From NCBI RefSeq assembly GCF_055900595.2, contig NZ_CM148325.1: a stretch of DNA of 64,000 nucleotides; one strand, given 5' to 3'. Under the pieces are notes generated by a model. The model had not been told where the DNA came from. It ran no database searches and saw only the letters and a program-made list of their open reading frames with translations. Position 1 is the stretch's first letter. Each line of letters opens with the position of its first letter. The translations under genes and the position numbers were made by a program. Shown piece after piece: positions 6,084 through 46,961 of the stretch.

Positions 6084-7286
6084 ATGCGCATCCTTCACAC
6101 CTCAGACTGGCATCTCGGCCAGAACTTCTACAGTAAAAGCCGCGAAGCTGAACACCAGGCCTTTCTTGACTGGCTGCTGGAAACAGCGCAAACCCATCAG
6201 GTGGATGCGATTATTGTTGCCGGTGATGTTTTCGATACCGGATCACCGCCCAGTTACGCCCGCACGTTATACAACCGTTTTGTTGTCAATTTACAGCAAA
6301 CGGGCTGTCATCTGGTGGTACTGGCAGGAAACCATGACTCGGTCGCCACGCTGAATGAATCGCGCGATATCATGGCGTTCCTCAATACTACCGTGGTCGC
6401 CAGCGCCGGACATGCGCCGCAAATCTTGCCTCGTCGCGACGGGACGCCAGGCGCAGTGCTGTGCCCCATTCCTTTTTTACGCCCGCGTGACATTATTACC
6501 AGCCAGGCGGGGCTTAACGGTATTGAAAAACAACAACATTTGCTGGCGGCTATTACCGATTATTACCAACAACATTATGCCGATGCCTGCAAACTGCGCG
6601 GCGATCAGCCTCTGCCCATCATCGCCACGGGGCATTTAACGACCGTTGGTGCCAGCAAAAGTGACGCCGTGCGTGACATTTATATTGGCACGCTGGACGC
6701 CTTCCCGGCACAAAACTTTCCGCCAGCCGACTACATCGCGCTCGGGCATATTCACCGCGCACAGATTATTGGCGGCATGGAACATGTTCGCTATTGCGGT
6801 TCCCCCATTCCACTGAGTTTTGATGAATGCGGAAAAAGTAAATATGTCCATCTGGTGACATTTTCAAACGGCAAATTAGAGAGCGTGGAAAACCTGAGCG
6901 TGCCGATAACGCAACCGATGGCGGTACTGAAAGGCGATCTGGCGTCGATTACCGAACAGCTGGAACAGTGGCGCGATGTATCACAGGAACCACCTGTCTG
7001 GCTGGATATCGAAATCACTACTGATGAGTATCTGCATGATATTCAGCGCAAAATCCAGGCATTAACTGAATCACTGCCTGTCGAAGTATTGCTGGTACGC
7101 CGCAGCCGTGAACAGCGCGAGCGTGTGTTAGCCAGCCAACAGCGTGAAACCCTCAGCGAACTCAGCGTCGAAGAGGTGTTTAATCGTCGTCTCGCACTGG
7201 AAGAACTGGATGAATCACAGCAGCAACGTCTGCAACATCTTTTCACCACGACGCTGCAGACCCTCGCCGGAGAACACGAAGCATGA
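6084..7286 (+). CDS. sbcD: DNA hairpin nuclease subunit SbcD
   Basis: ORF track 6042..7286; start placed at [13 protein letters not shown] (400 aa, Mre11-like phosphoesterase motifs). Confidence 0.95.
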
Positions 7287-10200
7287 AAATTCTCAGCCTG
7301 CGCCTGAAAAACCTGAACTCGTTAAAAGGCGAATGGAAGATTGATTTCACCCGCGAGCCGTTCGCCAGCAATGGGCTGTTTGCGATTACCGGCCCAACCG
7401 GCGCGGGGAAAACCACCCTGCTGGATGCCATTTGCCTGGCGCTGTATCACGAAACTCCGCGCCTTTCTAACGTTTCACAATCGCAAAATGATCTAATGAC
7501 CCGCGATACCGCCGAATGTCTGGCGGAAGTGGAGTTTGAAGTCAAAGGTGAAGCGTACCGTGCATTCTGGAGCCAGAATCGGGCGCGTAACCAGCCAGAC
7601 GGTAATTTGCAGGTGCCGCGCGTAGAGCTGGCGCGCTGTACCGATGGCAAAATTCTCGCTGACAAAGTGAAAGATAAGCTGGAACTGACGGCGACGTTAA
7701 CCGGACTGGATTATGGGCGTTTCACCCGTTCGATGCTGCTTTCGCAGGGGCAATTTGCTGCCTTCCTGAATGCCAAACCAAAAGAACGCGCGGAATTGCT
7801 CGAGGAATTAACCGGCACCGAAATCTACGGGCAAATCTCTGCGATGGTCTTTGAGCAGCACAAATCGGCCCGCACTGAGCTGGAGAAACTGCAAGCGCAG
7901 GCCAGCGGCGTCGCGTTATTAGCGCCAGAACAAGTGCAATCGCTGACAGAAAGTTTGCAGGTACTCACTGTCGAAGAGAAACAGTTACTCGCCGCGCAGC
8001 AGCAAGAACAACAATCGTTAAACTGGTTAACGCGTCTGGACGAATTGCAGCAAGAAGCCAGCCGCCGTCAGCAGGCATTGCAACAGGCGTTAGCCGAAGA
8101 AGAAAAAGCGCAACCTCAACTGGCGGCGCTCAGTCTGGCACAACCGGCGCGAAATCTTCGTCCGCACTGGGAACGCATCGCAGAACACACTGCGGCACTG
8201 GCGCATACTCGCCAGCAGATTGAAGAAGTAAATACTCGCTTACAGCGCACAATGGCGCTTCGTGCGAGCATTCGCCACCACGCGGCGAAGCAGTCTGCAG
8301 AATTACATCAGCAGCAACAAAGCCTGAATGCCTGGTTACAGGAACACGACCGCTTCCGTCAGTGGAACAACGAACTGGCGGGTTGGCGTGCGCAATTCTC
8401 TCAACAAACCAGCGAACGCGAGCATCTGCGGCAGTGGCAGCAACAGTTAACCCATGCAGAGCAAAAACTTAATTCACTTCCGGCGATCTCGTTGACGTTA
8501 AGCGCCGATGAAGTTGCTAGCGCCCAGGCGCAACATGCTGAGCAACGCACGCTGCGTCAGCGCCTGGTCGCGCTGCATGGGCAGATTGTTCCCCAACAAA
8601 AACGCCTGGCGCAATTACAGGTTGCTATCCAGAATGTCACGCAGGAACAGACGCAACGTAACGCCGCACTTAACGAAATGCGCCAGCGTTATAAAGAAAA
8701 AACGCAACAACTTGCCGATGTGAAAACCATTTGCGAGCAGGAAGCTCGTATCAAAACGCTGGAAGTTCAACGTGCGCAGTTACAGGCGGGTCAGCCTTGC
8801 CCACTTTGTGGTTCCACCAACCACCCGGCAGTAGAGGCGTATCAGGCACTGGAACCGGGTGTTAATCAGGCCCGCTTACTGACGCTTGAAAACGAAGTGA
8901 AAAAGCTCGGGGAGGAAGGCGCGGCGCTGCGCGGGCAACTGGACGCCTTAACGAAGCAGCTTCAGCGTGATGAAAACGAAGCGCAAAGCCTCCGACAAGA
9001 TGAGCAAGCACTTACTCAACAATGGCAAGCTGTCACGGCCAGCCTCAATATCACCTTGCAGCCACAGGACGATATTCAACCGTGGCTGGATGCACAAGAT
9101 GAGCACGAGCGCCAGCTGCGGATACTCAGCCAACGGCATGAATTACAAGGGCAGATTGCCGCGCATAATCAGCAAATTATCCAGTATCAACAGCAAATTG
9201 AACAACGCCAGCAGCAACTCTTAACGGCATTGGCGGGTTATGCACTGACATTGCCACAGGAAGATGAAGAAGAGAGCTGGTTGGCGACGCGTCAGCAAGA
9301 AGCACAGAGCTGGCAGCAACGCCAGAACGAATTAACCGCGCTGCAAAACCGTATGCAGCAGCTGACGCCGATTCTGGAAACGTTGCCGCAAAGTGATGAA
9401 TTCCCGCACAGCGAAGAAACTGTGGCGCTGGAAAACTGGCGGCAAATTCATGAACAATGTCTCGCGTTACAAAGCCAGCAGCAGACGTTACAGCAACAGG
9501 ATGTTCTGGCGGCGCAAAGTCTGCAAAAAGCCCAGGCGCAGTTTGACACCGCGCTACAGGCCAGTGTCTTTGACGATCAACAGGCGTTCCTTGCGGCGCT
9601 AATGGATGAACAAACACTAACGCAACTGGAACAGCTCAAGCAGAATCTGGAAAACCAGCGCCGTCAGGCGCAAACGCTGGTCACTCAGACAGCTGAAACG
9701 CTGGCACAGCATCAGCAACACCGACCTGACGGCCTGGATCTCAGTGTGACGGTGGAGCAGATTCAGCAAGAGTTAGCGCAAACTCACCAAAAGTTGCGTG
9801 AAAACACCACGAGTCAGGGCGAGATTCGTCAACAGCTGAAACAGGATGCGGAAAACCGTCAGCAACAACAAACCTTAATGCAGCAAATTGCTCAAATGAC
9901 GCAGCAGGTTGAGGACTGGGGATATCTTAATTCGCTAATAGGTTCCAAAGAGGGCGATAAATTCCGCAAGTTTGCCCAGGGGCTGACGCTGGATAATTTA
10001 GTCCATCTCGCTAATCAGCAACTTACCCGGTTACACGGGCGCTATCTGTTACAGCGCAAAGCCAGCGAGGCGCTGGAAGTCGAGGTTGTCGATACCTGGC
10101 AGGCAGACGCGGTACGCGATACCCGTACCCTTTCTGGCGGCGAAAGTTTTCTCGTCAGTCTGGCGCTGGCGCTGGCACTTTCAGATCTGGTCAGCCATAA

Positions 10201-13900: not shown

Positions 13901-14036
13901 CGGCGGGCAATAATTTTTAGCGCAGCAATATTATGCGTTTTACGCCGTAACTGATCCAACCGTCTCATCCCTATTCGCCTGTCAGCGGCACGCAGAATAT
14001 TCACTAACCCCCATTTATCGCTGGTAAATTGTTTCG

Positions 14037-14345
14037 TTAACAGCTCCGCTTTTGGGTATCAATATATTCACGCAATAAATCAGAAATTGAACAAATATCC
14101 GTCAGATAAGGATACCAGCAAGTTTCACCATGAAAATTACGCACTCCACCATTGCCTGCCATAAAGTCTTTTGGGTAATCCCAGATCACGTCTTTATCCA
14201 ACGTGATCCAATAACGCGGTAAATCGGTGCTTCCACCATTTTGGCTGCGCATGGGATAACGGGTACAGTGAATTTGCAGGTTGATCGTTGGCGTCAGTAA
14301 GTCATAAATCTCCCTCTGTAACTTGCTCCAGGGGCGTTGTGTCAT
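14037..14345 (-). CDS. hypothetical 102-aa protein, translationally coupled (ATGA overlap) to the upstream 762-aa ORF; no signal peptide
   Basis: ORF track; start codon overlaps the stop of the large ORF; sits in the position of the K-12 ykiA locus but identity to ykiA is unverified. Confidence 0.6.
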
Positions 14346-16630
14346 TGTTTTTCCTCAAGCCGGTTACGCGCTTCACTGCGAATTTGCCGCGTTGCCCCGG
14401 TTTTCACTAAATCACGTAACTGCGAAAGATCGGGCTGATCGACAAATAAGATTAATGATGGATCCTCTTTTAACCACGCCGTTTTCACATCGGCAGCCAA
14501 CTGTGGATTATTAATAGCCAGCGCCCGATCCTGTGACTCAGTCAATGTCGTTAACAAAGAGGCTGGGGTATGTACATTGCGCAACGCCGTCTGCCGCAAA
14601 TGATCATTGTGACTTTTCAGCAATCCGCACCACCATTCATCATCTGATTTATCTTTTATCGTATCCAGCTCCGCAAAAATATCGCTTTCCTCATGATTCC
14701 AGCGGTGTAATCCTCTTTCACTTTGTCTACGGGTGCTATTTTTCATACTGACAACAGACAACGCCCAGTCAGAGTTAAAACGATACTGTTGATCGAGTTT
14801 GTTGATAATTCCGGAGGGTAAATCTTTATTATCAAATAACTGGTTTCGCATCCGATAGCGGTATTCAGCAGGTAAATAAACCAGTAAATCGATAGCATTA
14901 TTAAGCATCTCTTCGTCAATAATACCATTATCAATCAGCGCCAGCTGTACTTCGTAGGCTTGCTCTTGATCTTCTTGCCGTTTACTCATCATTAATTTTA
15001 AGGTGTGTTGCCATAATTGTTTCTTATACTCCAGAGGTAACAATTTATCGCGTGCCAGCTCATACCAGATGCTGGGAATGTCATGCTGATTCAGTAGATA
15101 ACTAATCACTTCCTTCGAGGTCAGATAACGCATGCCGTCACGTAAATTGTGCACATCTTCTTTTGCCAAAGTCAGTTGACGCGACTCCGGCAAAGCGACC
15201 AATAACGCCTTCACGATATTTTTATTTTCTTTATTATCCAGATACATTTGTTCTGCGATACGTTCAACATCCTCTGTCCTCAGGGTCGCTGACAGTTGGG
15301 TGATTTTTAGTTCAGTAAGCGTCCGGGCTAATGCTTGACGAACTTTCAGCGATTTATCTTTACTCAACAACACCGCTTGTTGTGCGGTTAAATCGGTTCC
15401 GGTAATTCTTTCGCGTAACTCCAGATCTTCGCTATTTATCAATTCATCAACCACTGCAGTTGGAACCAGCCAGGCGTAATCGTAATGGCTGATTAATGTC
15501 TTGCGCACACTGAGAAAAGGGCTTTGACTTAACGATACAACAATATCAGGAGAAAGATTATCCTGTCTGGCCTGCTCCAGCTGTACGCTCTCGACGGGTA
15601 CAGACATTAATTTTTTATTCACTTCGGCGGATATATTGCTGTTTTTAACCAGTCCTCTGGCAACAGCTTCATCTTTAATTAATTCATCGGTAAGCAAATG
15701 CATGTGTTGAGCAGGCCAGGACTGCGCCATTGATTCACGCGTCTGGTCATCGGGGTGCTGTAACAGTTGCAGCATAACGGCGGTTGACAAACTTTCTATA
15801 TGAGTCAGAAAACGTGCCACCAGTGGATCTTCATGCTTTATTTTATCCGCAAGGAAATTATCGAGTTTCCCCGTTTCAATCCATTTTAATTTCTCATTAA
15901 TTTCAGGAGCAGCTTTATCTCGAAAAAGAGGTAAACCCTGAACGATATTGTCTACGACGCTATCATAGTCAGGATACGCATTGGAAATATTATCGGTTTC
16001 GATTTCACTATGATCATAAAGATTAGGCGTCACCAGTGAATAGGCTTTTTGAATATTCTCGTCCCAGTTATATTCTTCACCGCTTTCATCTTCATTGATA
16101 TAAAACTCAGCTTTGATGACCTCAAATTGCGTTGCTTTATCGGAAACAATAATGCCTCGCGCGTTAATTCCTTTCATCACTTCAAAGTTGTGATCATTAT
16201 AATCAGCATAAACTAAACCTTTTGCTGTCATCTGCCCTTTGACATACGCGAAATCATGATTAATAAAGTTATCGACAATAACATTACCTAATACAATCAG
16301 ATGACCATTACCTGACAGATAATCATCATAATCGCCGGAAATCGTTAAATTACCGTTCACCACCAGTTTATGCTGATTGCTGAAGTTAGTGGGTAATGAT
16401 AGGTCACCATTATGATAATACCAGCGGATATTATCTTTTAGCATATAAGCAGCTTCCATACTATCGTTGGTTGCCGCTTTAACCACGTTGCGCTCATCTG
16501 CCGTCATAAGATGAAAGTCAGAGGTGATAAGGTCCTCGCTACTGATCCACTCTGTGGCACATGCATTGCCAGTCATAAAAAATACGACCATACAGATGAC
16601 CAATATATTAATTCTATTCATAATCTTCAC
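14342..16630 (-). CDS. hypothetical secreted 762-aa repeat protein (Sec signal peptide; N-terminal Asn/Gly/Asp-rich beta-type region; C-terminal HEAT/LRV-like helical repeats)
   Basis: ORF track; N-terminus MKIMNRINILVICMVVFFMTGNACA has n/h/c regions of a Sec signal peptide; repeated motifs such as HLRQTALRNVHTPASLLTTLTES and DRALAINNPQLAADVKTAWLKEDPSL; locally AT-rich DNA. Confidence 0.75.
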   Translation of the reverse strand: MKIMNRINILVICMVVFFMTGNACATEWISSEDLITSDFHLMTADERNVVKAATNDSMEAAYMLKDNIRWYYHNGDLSLPTNFSNQHKLVVNGNLTISGDYDDYLSGNGHLIVLGNVIVDNFINHDFAYVKGQMTAKGLVYADYNDHNFEVMKGINARGIIVSDKATQFEVIKAEFYINEDESGEEYNWDENIQKAYSLVTPNLYDHSEIETDNISNAYPDYDSVVDNIVQGLPLFRDKAAPEINEKLKWIETGKLDNFLADKIKHEDPLVARFLTHIESLSTAVMLQLLQHPDDQTRESMAQSWPAQHMHLLTDELIKDEAVARGLVKNSNISAEVNKKLMSVPVESVQLEQARQDNLSPDIVVSLSQSPFLSVRKTLISHYDYAWLVPTAVVDELINSEDLELRERITGTDLTAQQAVLLSKDKSLKVRQALARTLTELKITQLSATLRTEDVERIAEQMYLDNKENKNIVKALLVALPESRQLTLAKEDVHNLRDGMRYLTSKEVISYLLNQHDIPSIWYELARDKLLPLEYKKQLWQHTLKLMMSKRQEDQEQAYEVQLALIDNGIIDEEMLNNAIDLLVYLPAEYRYRMRNQLFDNKDLPSGIINKLDQQYRFNSDWALSVVSMKNSTRRQSERGLHRWNHEESDIFAELDTIKDKSDDEWWCGLLKSHNDHLRQTALRNVHTPASLLTTLTESQDRALAINNPQLAADVKTAWLKEDPSLILFVDQPDLSQLRDLVKTGATRQIRSEARNRLEEKQ

Positions 16631-16725
16631 TGATATTTATATCAACCTTGATGAATTATGAATATATCGGAAATCGAAAAAATCGCAGCAAAGGAAATAT
16701 TATTATGGGTTAAAGAGAGGATATT

Positions 16726-39168: not shown

Positions 39169-39798
39169 ATGATTAGGGTTGTGCTGGTGGATGACCATGT
39201 GGTGGTGCGCTCTGGCTTCGCACAGTTACTCTCTCTGGAAGACGATCTGGAGGTCATTGGTCAGTACAGTTGTGCCGCGCAGGCATGGTCGGCATTAACT
39301 CATAATGACGTTAATGTTGCCGTCATTGATATCGCCATGCCGGACGAAAATGGCCTCAGTCTGCTTAAGCGTCTGCGTGCACAAAAACCGCAATTCCGCG
39401 CCATTATTCTTAGCATTTATGACACGCCAACCTTTGTACAAAGCGCTCTGGATGCTGGTGCCAGCGGCTATTTGACCAAACGCTGTGGGCCGGAAGAGTT
39501 AGTGCAGGCGGTGCGCTCGGTCGGGATGGGCGGGCATTATCTCTGCGCCGATGCAATTCGGGCTTTACGCGGCGGCGGGCAACCCGCCCAGGCGTTGGAA
39601 ATTCTCACCCCACGAGAACGTGAAGTGTTTGATTTATTAGTCAAAGGCGACAGTGTCAAAGAGATCGCCTTTAAGCTCGAACTCAGCCATAAAACGGTAC
39701 ATGTACATCGCGCCAACGTGCTGGGAAAACTGAACTGTCATAGCACCATTGAGCTGGTGCATTTTGCACTCAATCACCATCTGCTGGCGGGGCATTAA
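39169..39798 (+). CDS. UhpA-like NarL/FixJ-family response regulator (paralog, not the canonical uhpA)
   Basis: ORF track, 209 aa; receiver domain with conserved Asp residues and C-terminal LuxR-type HTH; close resemblance to UhpA from memory. Confidence 0.85.
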   Translation: MIRVVLVDDHVVVRSGFAQLLSLEDDLEVIGQYSCAAQAWSALTHNDVNVAVIDIAMPDENGLSLLKRLRAQKPQFRAIILSIYDTPTFVQSALDAGASGYLTKRCGPEELVQAVRSVGMGGHYLCADAIRALRGGGQPAQALEILTPREREVFDLLVKGDSVKEIAFKLELSHKTVHVHRANVLGKLNCHSTIELVHFALNHHLLAGH

Positions 39799-41339
39799 TG
39801 TCGCGTAACCTTCGTCATTGGGTGATTTCGCTGTTTATTGTGCTGGCCTGGGGAAGCGGCTGGCTGATGTTGTGGACGCTCAGCTTTTATCTGACCAATA
39901 ACGGTCAACAGGCAGTGTTATTTCTGCCGCACGGAGTTTACCTCGCTCTTCTTATTTTGCTCTCTCGCCGTTACTGGCCTGCGTTGGTGCTCCCCCCTTT
40001 GCTGATGATGTTCTGGCTGCACAGCGAGCAACTGTTGAACGGCTATCTCATGCTGGCAACGCCGGTTATTAGCCTGCTTCCTGCCATCCTTGCACAAAAC
40101 GTCTGGCACCGTTTTCCACTTTACTGGCAGCGTCTGACGTTGCTGTTAGCCTCAGTAACAGCAGCTTCATTGCTGAATACAGCCATGCTAACCCCTTTTA
40201 TGTCAGGCCCAATAATGCTGCCCGGTCTGACCTCATTTACCGGCGGCGTATTGTTGACGCCGTTTGTCTATCTCATCTTTGAGTTTCTGCGCCAGCAGCA
40301 TCGCTATCAGCTTCTGAGACTCGATACGCATAATCCCCCCTTGCGAACCTCTTTAATCATCTGGTGTAGCCTATTTTTTATTATTGGTATCGGCACCCAG
40401 ATGGTGTTGTCGCCTGAAATCGAACGCCTGCTGCTGATCGTGGTATTTCTACCCAATGTGGTCATGGCCTGGAAATTTGGCTGGCAAGGTGGCGTACTCT
40501 CGGGGCTTTTGGGCAGCATGATGATCACTATTGCCCGCCAGATTGGCGTGGGCTTTAGTAACCTGGTGGAACTGGAGATTTTTCTCGCAACCCAGGCATT
40601 GCTGGGAATTGGCCTGGGCATTGCCATCAGTCGCCAGCAACATCTGGCGCTAAACCTGCATCATTACCGTCAGCGACTGGAGGCAGAACTGGCAGCACGG
40701 CGGGCATTGGCTGAAAAGCTGATCCACACCGAGGAAGACACGCGTAAAAGCCTGGCTCGCGAGCTGCACGACGAAATCGGTCAGAACATTACCGCCATTC
40801 AGATCCAGTCGCAACTGGTGACGCGGGCACGCGATCCGGCGCAAGTTCATTCCGCAGCCAGCCAAATCAACGAACTCGCCCGCCGCATTCATCTCTCCAC
40901 CCGCCAGTTGCTGCGCCAGTTGCGGCCACCCGCGCTTGATGAACTGACATTCCGCGAAGCATTACTTCATCTGATTAATGAATTTGCCTTTAGTGAACGC
41001 GGCATTCATTGCCAGTTTACCTATCAACTAACCACCACGCCAGAAAACGAAACGGTTCGCTTTACACTGTATCGGTTATTGCAGGAGTTACTCAATAACG
41101 TCTGTAAACACGCCGAAGCCAGCGAAGTGACGATTATTCTGCGCCAGCAGGGAGAGATATTGCACCTGGAGGTCAGCGACAACGGTATAGGAATCGCCAG
41201 CGGGAAAATGACCGGATTTGGCATTCAGGGGATGCGTGAACGCGTCAGTGCCCTGGGCGGCGACTTAACGCTCGAAAAACATAACGGTACGCGAGTAATT
41301 GTTAACCTGCCCACATTTTTGCAACAAATCGCCGGATAA
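39798..41339 (+). CDS. UhpB-like sensor histidine kinase (multi-pass membrane N-domain + HisKA_3/HATPase)
   Basis: ORF track, 513 aa; H-box LARELHDEIGQ; 1-nt start/stop overlap (TAATG) with the upstream regulator gene. Confidence 0.85.
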   Translation: MSRNLRHWVISLFIVLAWGSGWLMLWTLSFYLTNNGQQAVLFLPHGVYLALLILLSRRYWPALVLPPLLMMFWLHSEQLLNGYLMLATPVISLLPAILAQNVWHRFPLYWQRLTLLLASVTAASLLNTAMLTPFMSGPIMLPGLTSFTGGVLLTPFVYLIFEFLRQQHRYQLLRLDTHNPPLRTSLIIWCSLFFIIGIGTQMVLSPEIERLLLIVVFLPNVVMAWKFGWQGGVLSGLLGSMMITIARQIGVGFSNLVELEIFLATQALLGIGLGIAISRQQHLALNLHHYRQRLEAELAARRALAEKLIHTEEDTRKSLARELHDEIGQNITAIQIQSQLVTRARDPAQVHSAASQINELARRIHLSTRQLLRQLRPPALDELTFREALLHLINEFAFSERGIHCQFTYQLTTTPENETVRFTLYRLLQELLNNVCKHAEASEVTIILRQQGEILHLEVSDNGIGIASGKMTGFGIQGMRERVSALGGDLTLEKHNGTRVIVNLPTFLQQIAG

Positions 41340-41411
41340 CCAGGAAAAAGTCTTAGGCATCCCGGATTTTCTCTCATCCTCTTTCACTTTCATTTTCATA
41401 TAGTCAGCAAC

Positions 41412-42728
41412 ATGGAGACGACCATGCACGCACGTTCAGCGAGAGAGATTAATCAATGCTACCGGACATTACGTCCGCGATTGCTGATGTGCATGATTAT
41501 TGGCTACGCCGCATTTTATCTGACGCGAAAAAGCGTGAATTACGTCCTTCCGGCGCTGCAAACCGACCTCGGACTGGATAAAGGCGACATTGGCCTGCTG
41601 GGTTCGCTGTTTTATCTCAGCTACGGATTGTCGAAATTTACCGCCGGACTGTGGCATGACAGCCACGGACAACGCGGTTTTATGGGCGTCGGCTTGTTCG
41701 CCACTGGGCTATTGAACATGGTGTTTGCCTTTGGCGAATCACTTACGCTTCTGCTTGTGGTCTGGACACTGAACGGTTTTTTTCAGGGCTGGGGATGGCC
41801 ACCGTGTGCCCGCTTACTGACCCATTGGTACTCCCGTAATGAACGTGGTTTCTGGTGGGGCTGCTGGAATATGTCGATCAACATTGGCGGAGCGATTATT
41901 CCGCTGATTAGCGCCTTTGCCGCCCACTGGTGGGGCTGGCAGGCCGCGATGCTGACACCGGGGATTATCAGCATGGCATTAGGGATCTGGTTAACGCTAC
42001 AGCTTAAAGGCACACCCCAGGAAGAGGGATTACCGACGGTGGGTCAGTGGCGTCACGATCCGCTGGAATTACGTCAGGAACAACAAAGTCCGCCGATGGG
42101 GCTGTGGCAAATGTTGCGAACCACAATGCTGCAAAATCCGATGATCTGGCTGCTGGGTGTCTCTTATGTACTGGTTTATGTGATCCGGATTGCGCTAAAC
42201 GACTGGGGCAATATCTGGCTGACGGAAAGCCACGGCGTCAACCTACTCAGCGCCAACGCCACGGTAATGCTGTTTGAAGTGGGCGGCTTACTCGGCGCGT
42301 TATTTGCCGGATGGGGTTCGGATTTGCTGTTTAGCGGGCAGCGAGCCCCCATGATTTTGCTGTTTACCCTTGGGTTGATGGTTTCGGTCGCTGCACTCTG
42401 GTTGGCACCGGTTCATCACTATGCCCTTCTGGCTGTGTGCTTTTTTACTGTGGGCTTTTTTGTCTTTGGCCCGCAAATGCTGATTGGACTTGCGGCAGTG
42501 GAATGTGGACACAAAGCTGCGGCGGGTTCAATTACCGGATTTCTCGGCCTGTTCGCCTATCTCGGTGCGGCGCTGGCAGGCTGGCCGTTGTCGCTGGTTA
42601 TCGAACGCTACGGCTGGTCAGGAATGTTCAGTTTACTCTCGGTCGCCGCAGTACTTATGGGTTTACTGCTGATGCCGTTACTGATGGCGGGCATCACCAC
42701 CACTCACGCTCGAAGGATAAAACAATGA
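41412..42728 (+). CDS. UhpC-like MFS sugar-phosphate sensor/transporter (organophosphate:Pi antiporter family)
   Basis: ORF track, 438 aa; strong resemblance to UhpC/UhpT (e.g. FFQGWGWPPCARLLTHWYSRNERG). Confidence 0.85.
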   Translation: METTMHARSAREINQCYRTLRPRLLMCMIIGYAAFYLTRKSVNYVLPALQTDLGLDKGDIGLLGSLFYLSYGLSKFTAGLWHDSHGQRGFMGVGLFATGLLNMVFAFGESLTLLLVVWTLNGFFQGWGWPPCARLLTHWYSRNERGFWWGCWNMSINIGGAIIPLISAFAAHWWGWQAAMLTPGIISMALGIWLTLQLKGTPQEEGLPTVGQWRHDPLELRQEQQSPPMGLWQMLRTTMLQNPMIWLLGVSYVLVYVIRIALNDWGNIWLTESHGVNLLSANATVMLFEVGGLLGALFAGWGSDLLFSGQRAPMILLFTLGLMVSVAALWLAPVHHYALLAVCFFTVGFFVFGPQMLIGLAAVECGHKAAAGSITGFLGLFAYLGAALAGWPLSLVIERYGWSGMFSLLSVAAVLMGLLLMPLLMAGITTTHARRIKQ

Positions 42729-43756
42729 AAATGCCCCTTACCTCTACTCTGATTGCTTCTGCCGTTGCGCTGGCAACCTTAACGGGTGCCGCACAAGCGA
42801 AAGGTCGACTGGTGGTCTATTGCAGCGCCACTAATGAAATGTGTGAGACCGAAACCAAAGCGTTTGGCGAGAAATATGATGTGAAAACCTCGTTTATCCG
42901 CAACGGCTCCGGTAGCACCCTGGCAAAAGTCGATGCTGAAAAGAAAAACCCACAGGCTGACGTCTGGTACGGCGGCACCTTAGACCCGCAGTCGCAGGCC
43001 GGCGAGATGGGCCTGTTACAGGCATATAAATCGCCTAACCTTGAACAGATCATGGAAAAATTCCGCGATCCGGCAAAAGTGAAAGGAAACCTTTCCTCCG
43101 CCGTTTATGTGGGGATCCTCGGGTTTGGCGTCAACACAGAGCGTCTGAAAGAGAAAAACCTGCCTGTGCCGAAGTGCTGGAAAGATCTCACCAAACCTGA
43201 ATATAAAGGCGAAATTCAGATTGCCGATCCACAAAGTTCCGGTACCGCCTACACCGCGCTGGCTACCTTTGCGCAGCTGTGGGGGGAAGATCAGGCCTTT
43301 GATTATCTAAAACAACTTAACACCAACGTCTCCCAGTACACCAAATCAGGCATTGCCCCGGCACGTAACGCCGCCCGCGGCGAAACGGCGATTGGTATTG
43401 GCTTCCTGCATGACTACTCGCTGGAAAAAGAACAGGGTGCGCCGCTGGAGTTGATTTCCCCGTGTGAAGGTACGGGCTACGAAATTGGCGGCGTCAGCAT
43501 TCTGAAAGGCGCGCGCAACCTCGACAACGCCAAACTGTTTGTGGACTGGGTATTATCAAAAGAAGCTCAGGAACTGGCGTGGAAGAAAGGGAAGTCTTAT
43601 CAGATCCTGACCAATACCACCGCCGAAACGTCGCCAAATTCGCTGAAGCTCGACGACCTGAAATTAATCAACTACGACATGGATAAATACGGTTCCACGG
43701 ATGTTCGTAAGGCATTGATTAATAAATGGGTCAGCGAAGTGAAGATGGGTAAATAA
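42725..43756 (+). CDS. afuA: AfuA/FbpA-type periplasmic substrate-binding protein of an ABC importer
   Basis: ORF track 42437..43756; start placed at MKMPLTSTLIASAVALATLTGAAQA (signal peptide); ATGA overlap with the preceding gene. Confidence 0.85.
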   Translation: MKMPLTSTLIASAVALATLTGAAQAKGRLVVYCSATNEMCETETKAFGEKYDVKTSFIRNGSGSTLAKVDAEKKNPQADVWYGGTLDPQSQAGEMGLLQAYKSPNLEQIMEKFRDPAKVKGNLSSAVYVGILGFGVNTERLKEKNLPVPKCWKDLTKPEYKGEIQIADPQSSGTAYTALATFAQLWGEDQAFDYLKQLNTNVSQYTKSGIAPARNAARGETAIGIGFLHDYSLEKEQGAPLELISPCEGTGYEIGGVSILKGARNLDNAKLFVDWVLSKEAQELAWKKGKSYQILTNTTAETSPNSLKLDDLKLINYDMDKYGSTDVRKALINKWVSEVKMGK

Positions 43757-43824
43757 ACCCGCATTGCGTGCATTTGCCGGGCGCAGCACAAACGCCTGCC
43801 CCGGCCAACCATACCGGAACTGCT

Positions 43825-45903
43825 ATGTCACAGACACTTGCACTCCATCCCGTGAAAAAGCGGGATGCGATTTTCCTTTGGGTTTTGCTGGGCTGGCTGG
43901 CATTTATCCTGTTGCCGAGCTGGAGCCTCGATTATGGCCTGCTGGAGTCCACGAGTGATGAGATCCTCGAGGCTTATGGCTGGTCGCATTTTAATATCAG
44001 CTGGCTGTGGTATTTATTACCGAGTCTGTTGCTGGTTCGTCCGTTTCGTGAGGCCACACGCGAACAGCGTAGTCGTCATTATTTTGATGCCAGTTGGGCA
44101 TTGCTCTGTATGGCGTTTATCGTCATCAGCGCCACCGTGGCTGGACGCGGTTTAGGCTACGCCGCCATCGTGCTGTTTATCGAATTAAGCGCGATAATGA
44201 CGCTGGCCTTAACCCGCCTCGAATGGCTGGGTGGCGACCGCTTTGTGATCGGCTCGCTGATTGCGATTGTGGCGCTGATTGGCATTTTTATCGTCTGGCC
44301 GAGCATCGCCATTTTTATCCCGATGTTCACCAACGACGCGGGAGAGTTCGCCCCACTGGCGTTTATGAATGTGCTCTCGCAGGCCCATATCATTCAGGTG
44401 ATCGTCAACTCTATCGTCTTATCGATAGCGGTGGGTATTGGCTGTACTTTCTTCGGTCTGGTGCTGGCGATATATACCACGCGCATCGCTAAACGCAGCG
44501 CCGTAATCGGCCGCATCTTTTCCATTCTGCCAATTGTCACGCCACCGTTTGTGGTCGGCTTAGGCGTTACGCTCATGATGGGGCGCTCCGGCTACATAAC
44601 GGAATTTATGGTGGAGTGGTTTGGGCTGACCAACACCAACTGGCTGTATGGTTTTACCGGGATCTGGCTGGCACAGGTCCTGGCATTTACGCCAATGGCT
44701 TTTATGATCCTCGATGGGGCCATTAAAACCATTCATCCCTCGCTGGAAGAAGCCTCCTACACCCTGCGCGCCAGCCGCTGGCAAACCTTTAACGGTGTGT
44801 TTGTGCCGTTGTTAAAGCCCGCGCTTGCCAATGCCTTTTTAATCGTTGTGGTGCAGTCACTGGCTGACTTCAGTAACCCGCTGGTGCTTGGCGGCAACTT
44901 CGACGTACTGGCGACGCAAATTTACTTCTACATTACCGGCTCGCAGCTGGATTATCAGGCCGCCAGCACCCTTGGCGCTTTCCTGCTGCTGTTCTCGCTA
45001 CTGGTGTTCTGCGTCCAGTATATGTGGATTGGTAAACGCTCTTACGTCACGGTTTCCGGAAAGTCCTACCGCGGCGATGTCCAGCCACTACCGGTCACCC
45101 TGGTGTGGAGCGTGGTCGCCATACTTGCGATATGGATTGCCTTTAACGCCCTGCTCTATGGCAGCATTTTCTACGGCAGCTTCACTGTGAACTGGGGCGT
45201 TGACTACACCCTGACGCTGGATAACTTTATCAAGTTATTTGGTCAGGGGATGAGCGACGGCGCGTGGCCTTCACTGTTAGATACCTTGCTCTACGCCGGG
45301 ATTGCCGCCCCCATTACCGCTATCTTTGGCCTGCTCATCGCCTGGGTGGTGGTGCGCCAACAATTCAAAGGCAAAAAGACCATAGAGTTCACCACCATGT
45401 TGTGCTTTGCCGTACCGGGTACAGTGGCGGGTGTCTCGTATATTCTTGCCTTTAATAGCGCCCCGGTCTATCTCACCGGAACGGCAGCAATTGTGATTAT
45501 TTCGATGGTGATGCGCAACGTTCCGGTGGGTATTCGCGCCGGGATTGCAGGTCTGGGGCAGATCGACAAATCGCTGGATGAAGCCTCACTTAGCCTGCGT
45601 GCGGGTTCCCTGCGAACCATTACGCACATTTTACTGCCGTTGTTACGCCCAGCTATTCTCTCGGCCCTGATTTACAGCTTTGTGCGGGCTATCACGACGG
45701 TCAGCGCCATCGTCTTTCTCGTCACGCCGGACACACGCGTGGCAACCGCCTACATCCTTAACCGCGTAGAAGACGGCGAATATGGCGTAGCCATCGCCTA
45801 CGGTTCGATTCTGATCGTGGTGATGCTGGCGATTATTTTCCTCTTTGACTGGCTGATCGGTGAAGCACGTATTTCCCGTTCTAAAGCCAAAAACCAGGCG
45901 TAA
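43825..45903 (+). CDS. afuB: AfuB/FbpB-type fused two-domain ABC permease
   Basis: ORF track 43768..45903; start placed at MSQTLALHP (692 aa); many transmembrane segments. Confidence 0.85.
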
Positions 45904-45914
45904 TGGAGCGCACT

Positions 45915-46961
45915 ATGAGTCAGAAAAATTTTGTGGAACTGCGCAACGTCACTAAACGATTCGGCAGTAATAGGGTTATCGACAATATCAATCTCACCAT
46001 CCCACAAGGGCAAATGGTGACGCTGCTCGGTCCTTCCGGATGCGGCAAAACCACCATTCTGCGTCTGGTTGCCGGGCTGGAAAAACCGAGCGAAGGGCAA
46101 ATTTTTATAGATGGCGAAGATGTCACGCATCGTTCCATTCAGCAACGCGATATCTGCATGGTGTTTCAGTCATACGCTCTGTTCCCACATATGTCGCTGG
46201 GCGAAAACGTTGGCTATGGGCTGAAAATGCTTGGCGTGTCGCGTAGTGAAGTGAAGCAGCGGGTGAAAGATGCGCTAGCAATGGTGGATCTGGAAGGATT
46301 CGAAGACCGCTATGTCGACCAGATTTCCGGTGGTCAGCAACAGCGTGTGGCTCTGGCCCGTGCGTTGATCCTTAAGCCTAAAGTGCTGCTGTTTGATGAG
46401 CCGTTAAGTAACCTCGATGCCAACCTGCGTCGCAGCATGCGCGATAAAATCCGCGAGCTGCAAAAGCAATTTAACATCACTTCGCTCTATGTGACTCACG
46501 ATCAAAGTGAAGCTTTCGCGGTGTCCGACACCGTGTTGGTGATGAATAAAGGTCACATCATGCAGATTGGTTCACCGCAGGATCTCTATCGTCAGCCCGC
46601 CTCCCGCTTTATGGCAAGTTTTATGGGCGACGCCAACCTGTTCCCGGCGAACTTTAGCGAAGAGTATGTCGATATCTACGGTTATCGCCTGCCGCGCGCG
46701 GCGCATTTCCCGGCGCAAGGTAGCGGCACCGTCGGCGTTCGCCCGGAAGCCATCACCTTAAGCAATCACGGCGAAGAGAGTCAGCGTTGTGTTATTCGCC
46801 ATGTCGCCTACATGGGGCCGCAGTACGAAGTGACCGTAGAATGGCATGGTCAGGAGATTTTATTGCAAGTCAACGCCACCCGTTTACAGCCCGATATTGG
46901 TGAGCACTATTACCTCGAAATCCATCCTTACGGGATGTTTGTTTTAGCGGATGCGGCATAA
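45915..46961 (+). CDS. afuC: AfuC/FbpC-type ABC ATPase
   Basis: ORF track 45903..46961; start at [12 protein letters not shown]; Walker [10 protein letters not shown], signature ISGGQQQRV. Confidence 0.88.

Follow-up and report, generated by a model that had tools for sequence, protein, structure and literature searches.

When the stop codon of a sensor gene overlaps the start codon of an importer gene, are the two products tied together in expression, and if so by translation or by transcription? The question is raised by six consecutive plus-strand genes in a 64,000-nt stretch of DNA from RefSeq assembly GCF_055900595.2 (contig NZ_CM148325.1), the whole of which is called the window here. 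The genes encode a FusR/Z0463-type response regulator (39169–39798), a FusK/Z0462-type MASE1 histidine kinase (39798–41339), a Z0461-type UhpC-like protein of the major facilitator superfamily (MFS; 41424–42728), the periplasmic sugar-phosphate binding protein AfuA (42725–43756), the fused double permease AfuB (43825–45903) and the ATPase AfuC (45915–46961). A first-pass annotation of the window had noted start/stop overlaps at the regulator/kinase and MFS/afuA junctions and proposed from them an atypical wiring in which the sensor and its output importer are co-translated. We find that the overlaps are ordinary, and that the spacer between the kinase and MFS genes probably holds a promoter of the uhpT type, from which the UhpC-like gene and afuABC would be expressed as one operon induced by phosphorylated FusR. 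We put the probability of this reading as a whole at about 0.7.

Both overlaps can be read directly from the sequence. The regulator stop TAA (39796–39798) and the kinase start ATG (39798–39800) have one base in common, forming TAATG (39796–39800), and the UhpC-like stop TGA (42726–42728) and the afuA start ATG (42725–42727) have four, forming ATGA (42725–42728). RefSeq annotates both junctions identically in a genome that matches the 8.1-kb locus query at 100% identity, and both are the same in Escherichia coli O157:H7 Sakai, which confirms the overlaps as first described. Their surroundings make them unremarkable. When the annotation of the locus-identical genome is mapped to window coordinates (58 genes), overlaps occur in 8 of 40 same-strand neighbour pairs, with a length of 4 nt in seven of them and 1 nt in the eighth; sbcD/sbcC, tauD/tauC/tauB and mhpE/F/D are among the others. 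The same annotation places a 4-nt overlap between the SF0329-family and DUF2773 genes on the minus strand (13930–16661), both of them frameshifted pseudogenes. In E. coli K-12, uhpA and uhpB likewise have exactly one base in common, as TGATG. Because 8 of 40 pairs overlap in the window and the K-12 pair shares one base, both overlaps are routine operon junctions, no more than chance would give. The K-12 likeness further marks the 1-nt regulator/kinase overlap as the ancestral state of the Uhp gene family, and hence as no peculiarity of this locus.

The same conclusion follows for the regulator/kinase junction when it is compared among genomes. A search with AfuA of species-representative genomes returned 438 relatives, and the comparative counts given here use the best 80 loci, with the identical E. 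coli locus as reference; all 80 are from Enterobacterales, 79 from other genomes and one from a further E. coli. The regulator/kinase junction measures −1 in 61 loci, 0 in 10 and −4 in 2 (73 of 76 scorable loci), so that a 1-nt overlap here is not atypical. In 75 of 79 loci the kinase/MFS spacer measures 83–90 nt; that of the window measures 84 nt. At the MFS/afuA junction, the length is −4 in 23 loci, −1 in 9, +4 to +20 in 34 and +35 to +60 in 11 (77 of 79), with 160 nt in one Yersinia; the −4 form occurs in Escherichia, Citrobacter, Trabulsiella and Serratia marcescens, and the −1 form in Klebsiella and Raoultella. Within the transporter genes, afuA/afuB is mostly separated by 53–191 nt and afuB/afuC by 4–25 nt. 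A tight MFS/afuA junction is conserved in Enterobacterales; the ATGA overlap itself, present in 23 of 79 loci, is lineage-specific.

These lengths bear on co-translation. If coupling were obligatory, the ATGA would make AfuA synthesis depend on termination at the UhpC-like stop, and the 4-nt overlap in those 23 loci does have the classic geometry of termination–reinitiation. Such coupling would imply a downstream gene that either lacks an independent ribosome-binding site or has it sequestered. However, afuA has its own Shine–Dalgarno element, a strong AAGGA (42713–42717) within the 3′ end of the UhpC-like gene and 7 nt before ATG 42725, and this element is kept ∼7 nt before a conserved ATG, an optimal spacing, in every junction class across the 79 loci. 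Because afuA keeps this site, strict co-translation is not required. The A-rich start region, moreover, folds into no predicted structure that would sequester the afuA start (z = +0.46), orthologous cassettes vary from −4 to +60 nt at this junction, and a 1:1 yield of sensor and binding protein would be physiologically odd. Obligatory co-translation of the sensor and AfuA, as the first-pass annotation had it, appears unsupported on these grounds, and we disfavour it as improbable. The overlap arises instead because the C-terminal tail of the MFS protein, which is variable, is encoded across the conserved Shine–Dalgarno sequence of afuA. A second in-frame ATG at 42731 was considered as the afuA start and set aside; it is not conserved, whereas ATG 42725 is kept in 79 of 79 loci.

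Conservation of another kind is found in the kinase/MFS spacer. In an alignment of 74 distinct spacers, scored by mean column entropy per block, three blocks are conserved. The first, a 17-bp near-palindrome CCAGGAAAAAGTCTTAG (41340–41356; entropy 0.28), begins directly after the kinase stop and is a putative operator for FusR as a UhpA-type regulator; in Buttiauxella and Erwinia the palindrome is perfect (CCAGGAATAATTCCTGG), and Vibrionaceae have CTAGGAAATTTTCCTAG. The second, an invariant box TCTCATCC (41372–41379; entropy 0.07), lies 15 nt past the palindrome, and its TCTCA core stands 22 nt ahead of the third, a −10-like hexamer TATAGT (41399–41404) that is conserved in the pattern TAnAnT (entropy 0.35). 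The Shine–Dalgarno element of the UhpC-like gene, GGAG (41414–41417), is also conserved in the alignment. An ATG at 41412 was rejected as the MFS start, since it lies inside the Shine–Dalgarno element and is not conserved; ATG 41424 is used here, as in RefSeq. Third-codon positions of the adjacent MFS gene in the same loci served as a control and gave an entropy of 1.05 ± 0.18. Because the three blocks score 0.07–0.35 against this value at synonymous sites, they are under selection.

The layout of the blocks is that of a known promoter. The experimentally characterised uhpT promoter of K-12, PuhpT, aligns to the spacer without gaps: CTAAGAAATTTTCCAGG, 16 nt, TCTCA, 22 nt and TACAAT in K-12, and CCAGGAAAAAGTCTTAG, 15 nt, TCTCA, 22 nt and TATAGT in the window. 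Three Vibrionaceae loci (L096–L098), reached through PDB chain 8x1a, have the same six-gene order and carry upstream of the MFS gene the sequence CTAGGAAAT(A/T)TTCCTAG (CTAGGAATTTTTCTTAG in L097), then 15 nt, TCTCA or TCCCA, a further 22 nt, and TAACAT or TAGGAT. On PuhpT, the region bound by UhpA reportedly extends from about −80 to −32; if the −10 hexamer is set at −12 to −7, the palindrome of the window would be centred near −63. In L096, which belongs to the Vibrio cholerae/metoecus clade, the palindrome (6490–6506) lies within the last kinase codons (stop at 6510), so that the operator overlaps the sequence for the kinase C-terminus. No good −35 hexamer is present in the spacer, as would be expected of an activator-dependent promoter. 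The palindrome pattern, allowing 3 mismatches, is not statistically unique in the window (3 matches against 2.2 expected), so that its significance comes from conservation and position and not from how often the motif occurs.

The same blocks might serve a different arrangement, in which all six genes form a single operon transcribed from a promoter upstream of fusR and the spacer element, whether a FusR operator acting as roadblock or repressor or an element at the RNA level, holds back read-through into z0461-afuABC. No terminator-like site was seen between the kinase and MFS genes, FusKR has been reported as a repressor of z0461 (PMC6199705), and the palindrome starts one base past the stop of the kinase gene, whose coding sequence contains it in the V. 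cholerae-clade locus; all three observations would suit such an operon. Yet neither a conserved TAnAnT kept at a constant 22 nt from TCTCA nor collinearity with the characterised activator-dependent PuhpT would be needed by a roadblock, and a functional RNA hairpin sits poorly with the E. coli clade, which keeps an imperfect palindrome without compensatory changes. We regard a single operon of this kind as unlikely.

The MFS/afuA junction raises the converse possibility, that afuABC is driven by a promoter lying within the UhpC-like gene, at its 3′ end, in which case the sensor and importer would be independent and canonical Uhp logic would be preserved. Embedded promoters of this kind occur often and are hard to recognise from sequence, and binding proteins usually need far more expression than a membrane sensor. 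In the three Vibrionaceae loci, 66–176 nt separate the MFS gene from afuA, and an inducible ABC transporter operon has reportedly been described. Against this, a generic scan for sigma-70-like promoters, itself uninformative, gave no match on the plus strand between 42400 and 42725. Over the final 250 nt of the MFS gene, synonymous sites show no rise in conservation; entropy runs at 0.9–1.3 there, around a gene mean of 1.05, and no conserved element is present. The 45 nt upstream of the afuA Shine–Dalgarno element differ freely between clades, and no UhpA-type palindrome occurs between the MFS gene and afuA in any locus, Vibrionaceae included. An embedded promoter is thus disfavoured, and we hold it to be quite improbable. 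The first-pass annotation had named an independent promoter and ribosome-binding site for afuA as evidence that would speak against coupling: the ribosome-binding site exists, and no independent promoter was found.

We favour instead an arrangement in two transcription units, fusR-fusK and z0461-afuABC; transcription of the second would start from a promoter of UhpA type that depends on FusR in its phosphorylated form. The regulator/kinase overlap would keep both signalling partners on one message. The spacer of ∼85 nt would function as a uhpT-type activator-dependent promoter (palindrome, 15 nt, TCTCA, 22 nt, TAnAnT); in response to a presumed inducing ligand, phosphorylated FusR would bind and activate it, and the co-sensor gene and afuABC would be induced together as one operon. 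The co-sensor would then stand under its own output promoter, which would create positive feedback on the sensor. Because no terminator was seen in the spacer, basal co-sensor could be supplied by read-through from fusRK. The first-pass annotation was right that the canonical uhp transporter is separately transcribed, with K-12 uhpT lying behind a 137-nt promoter region. Its suggestion of an atypical wiring survives in part: the sensor gene has a promoter-sized gap of 84 nt upstream, abuts afuA and is probably co-transcribed with the importer genes, but the wiring would be carried by co-transcription and not by an overlap that only 23 of 79 loci possess.

Parts of this region have been described before. 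The cassette lies between tauA and frmR, as do ECs_0413–0418 of O157:H7 Sakai, and is 94.5% identical to the Sakai six-gene locus at the nucleotide level, without gaps. Because Sakai has the same six genes, site and junctions at this identity, the region can be recognised as the E. coli OI-20 cassette fusR-fusK-z0461-afuABC, already published as FusKR/Z0461/AfuABC. Sit et al. (2015; PMC4546632) placed afuABC in OI-20 and showed that AfuABC imports hexose and heptose phosphates, the Citrobacter rodentium orthologue transporting glucose-6-phosphate and fructose-6-phosphate; they did not address regulation or operon structure. FusKR has been characterised as a fucose sensor that represses the enterocyte-effacement locus (LEE) and z0461 (Pacheco et al. 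2012, Nature 492:113, as cited in PMC6199705 and PMC11644481), and Z0461 has been described as a fucose transporter (PMC6199705, PMC11644481). Expression of z0461 is accordingly given as FusKR-dependent, in the form of repression, in a secondary source (PMC6199705). The available portion of an RNA-seq record for EDL933 lists Z0461 and afuB (Z0459) as up-regulated, with mean read counts of 178 and 154, and does not show whether the conditions were the same; taken with FusKR control of z0461, these figures are weak support for joint expression. A literature search found no paper on the operon structure of the afuA/uhpC/FusR locus, and neither the promoter and operon arrangement proposed here nor the breadth of distribution described below was found in the searchable literature.

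Several points weigh against an activated promoter in the spacer. The main tension comes from the published repression of z0461 by FusKR, for which fucose and not a sugar phosphate is given as the signal (PMC6199705, PMC11644481); repression fits direct control of the gene by FusKR, and also a roadblock operator, but not simple activation. The promoter itself is predicted from conservation and homology, and it was missed by the generic sigma-70 scan. A miss is expected where the −35 hexamer is lacking, and the count of matches over the whole scan equalled the shuffle expectation, so that the scan is uninformative. The spacing of the half-sites is unlike that of the CCAGG-N5-CCTGG repeat also present in PuhpT, and the right half-site in E. 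coli is degenerate, with 3 mismatches to the perfect palindrome. Finally, the MFS/afuA gaps of 66–176 nt in Vibrionaceae could hold a second promoter.

The identities of the gene products are consistent with a system related to Uhp but distinct from it. The regulator is 49% identical to K-12 UhpA; its top NCBIfam match is UhpA at 193 bits, under the equivalog cut-off of 258 bits, and it is best classed as a UhpA paralogue and not an equivalog. The kinase likewise appears to be a UhpB paralogue, with 33% full-length identity to K-12 UhpB and a top NCBIfam match to UhpB at 373 bits, under the cut-off of 408 bits; RefSeq names it ‘MASE1 domain-containing sensor histidine kinase’, and Pfam assigns MASE1 to the Vibrio orthologues. 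The MFS protein, 53% identical to K-12 UhpC and 29% to UhpT, passes the NCBIfam cut-off for the UhpC receptor subfamily (588 versus 564 bits) and reaches only 215 bits with UhpT. AfuA is identified by its PDB matches, 4r72–75 (Actinobacillus pleuropneumoniae AfuA; E = 3e-170) and 8x1a (Vibrio; E = 2.5e-173). Its residues H229, D230 and E253, numbered with the signal peptide, are invariant across 12 orthologues (alignment A1), and a constant offset of +24 would equate them with the sugar-coordinating triad H205/D206/E229 of Sit et al. (2015; PMC4546632). AfuB has NCBIfam permease matches over both halves, and AfuC matches PRK11432 at 697 bits; the genes for both adjoin afuA and are kept in all 80 loci. 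For afuB, whose longest open reading frame starts at GTG 43768, the RefSeq start at 43825 is preferred. ATG 45903, which would add a 1-nt stop/start overlap, was rejected as the afuC start, the profile beginning at 45915, residue 5 of the longest open reading frame.

The 68-nt spacer between afuA and afuB (43757–43824) contains a GC-rich hairpin (43776–43805, a centroid stem on the plus strand), although the fold is not significant (z = −1.09). The hairpin may attenuate or stabilise the message and so set the ratio of binding protein to permease. Among species this spacer varies from 53 to 191 nt, with inserts of ∼139 nt in some Citrobacter.

The cassette is found well beyond O157:H7. Six-gene order is unchanged in every fetched Enterobacterales locus with enough flank (L003–L082), in genera that include Citrobacter, Klebsiella, Raoultella, Enterobacter, Lelliottia, Serratia, Buttiauxella, Rahnella, Erwinia, Pantoea, Brenneria and Yersinia, and 518 of 5426 complete E. 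coli genomes carry the cassette at a coverage of at least 80%. A 2024 review gave the FusKR system as present only in enterohaemorrhagic E. coli (EHEC) O157:H7 (PMC11644481). The distribution found here, together with the same gene order in the three Vibrionaceae loci, indicates an arrangement that is ancient and widespread, neither strain-specific nor confined to O157:H7. A search of representatives at 50% identity with AfuA returned mostly unrelated binding-protein contexts or short contigs. One Pasteurellaceae-type locus on a metagenome contig (L085, 3550–5781) has afuA without Uhp-like neighbours; the homologue is 73% identical to the E. coli protein and is followed by a second, tandem binding-protein gene, with udk/dcd-like genes upstream. 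In Citrobacter youngae ATCC 29220 (L011, 6706–8001), the UhpC-like gene has an in-frame stop near codon 103, the remainder being 94% identical and afuABC intact, and is likely a pseudogene or a sequencing error. No cassette was recovered in a search of plasmids, which yielded only a 1.4-kb afuB′-afuC fragment. The window interval 45555–46961 (query 6456–7862), comprising the 3′ end of afuB and afuC, is 85% identical to 32 mostly conjugative E. coli plasmids, and ∼1000 further E. coli genomes give partial cassette matches only. The plasmid fragment and the partial genome matches look like remnants of a second afu cluster; K-12 carries afuBC remnants in prophage CP4-6.

Set beside known systems, the cassette is close to UhpABC-UhpT of K-12. 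Both have a NarL-family regulator, a MASE1 kinase and an MFS co-sensor of UhpC type, encoded in that order; in both the regulator and kinase genes overlap by 1 nt, and the promoter layout is palindrome, TCTCA, 22 nt and −10 hexamer. The cassette differs in having no uhpT and in having the AfuABC importer as its output, as well as in a regulator and kinase that fall under the NCBIfam equivalog cut-offs for UhpA and UhpB. It differs also in where the long gap lies. In K-12 the regulator/kinase, kinase/MFS and MFS/transporter gaps are −1, 9 and 137 nt, and in the window −1, 84 and −4, so that the promoter-sized gap is upstream of the uhpC-type gene rather than downstream. The canonical grouping, with uhpC joined to uhpAB and a separate promoter before uhpT, is not what the cassette presents. 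With OI-20 FusKR/Z0461 of EHEC the cassette shares locus, chromosomal site and junctions, but, unlike the published account of FusKR, it is widespread and is joined to afuABC in every fetched locus with enough flank. The hexose-6-phosphate system of V. cholerae, VCA0682–VCA0687 (Moisi et al. 2013, J Bacteriol 195:1800; see PMC4101255), has the same six-gene order, and its clade locus (L096) has palindrome, TCTCA and −10 hexamer upstream of the MFS gene. In that clade, however, the MFS/afuA gap is 112 nt where the window has a 4-nt overlap, and the kinase gene contains the palindrome at its 3′ end.

The overlaps that raised the question are themselves of no consequence; the anatomy around them matters modestly. 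The spacer provides a testable promoter and operator for FusKR, a two-component system studied for its part in EHEC virulence, and the distribution found here corrects the notion of a system restricted to O157:H7. That FusKR is tied to the AfuABC genes across two bacterial orders leads one to ask whether a sugar phosphate, and not fucose, is its native signal. As a natural rewiring of Uhp, with the co-sensor placed in the operon that it helps to induce, the cassette predicts positive feedback and induction dynamics unlike those of the textbook system. More tentatively, and at odds we would set a little short of even, the FusKR ‘fucose sensor’ may be the regulator/kinase pair of an ancient and widespread three-component system, paralogous to Uhp and completed by Z0461, with AfuABC as its dedicated output; with its co-sensor gene under its own output promoter, unlike canonical Uhp, it would be a self-amplifying and possibly bistable switch, and its effects on EHEC virulence would be a secondary recruitment of an ordinary circuit for nutrient uptake.

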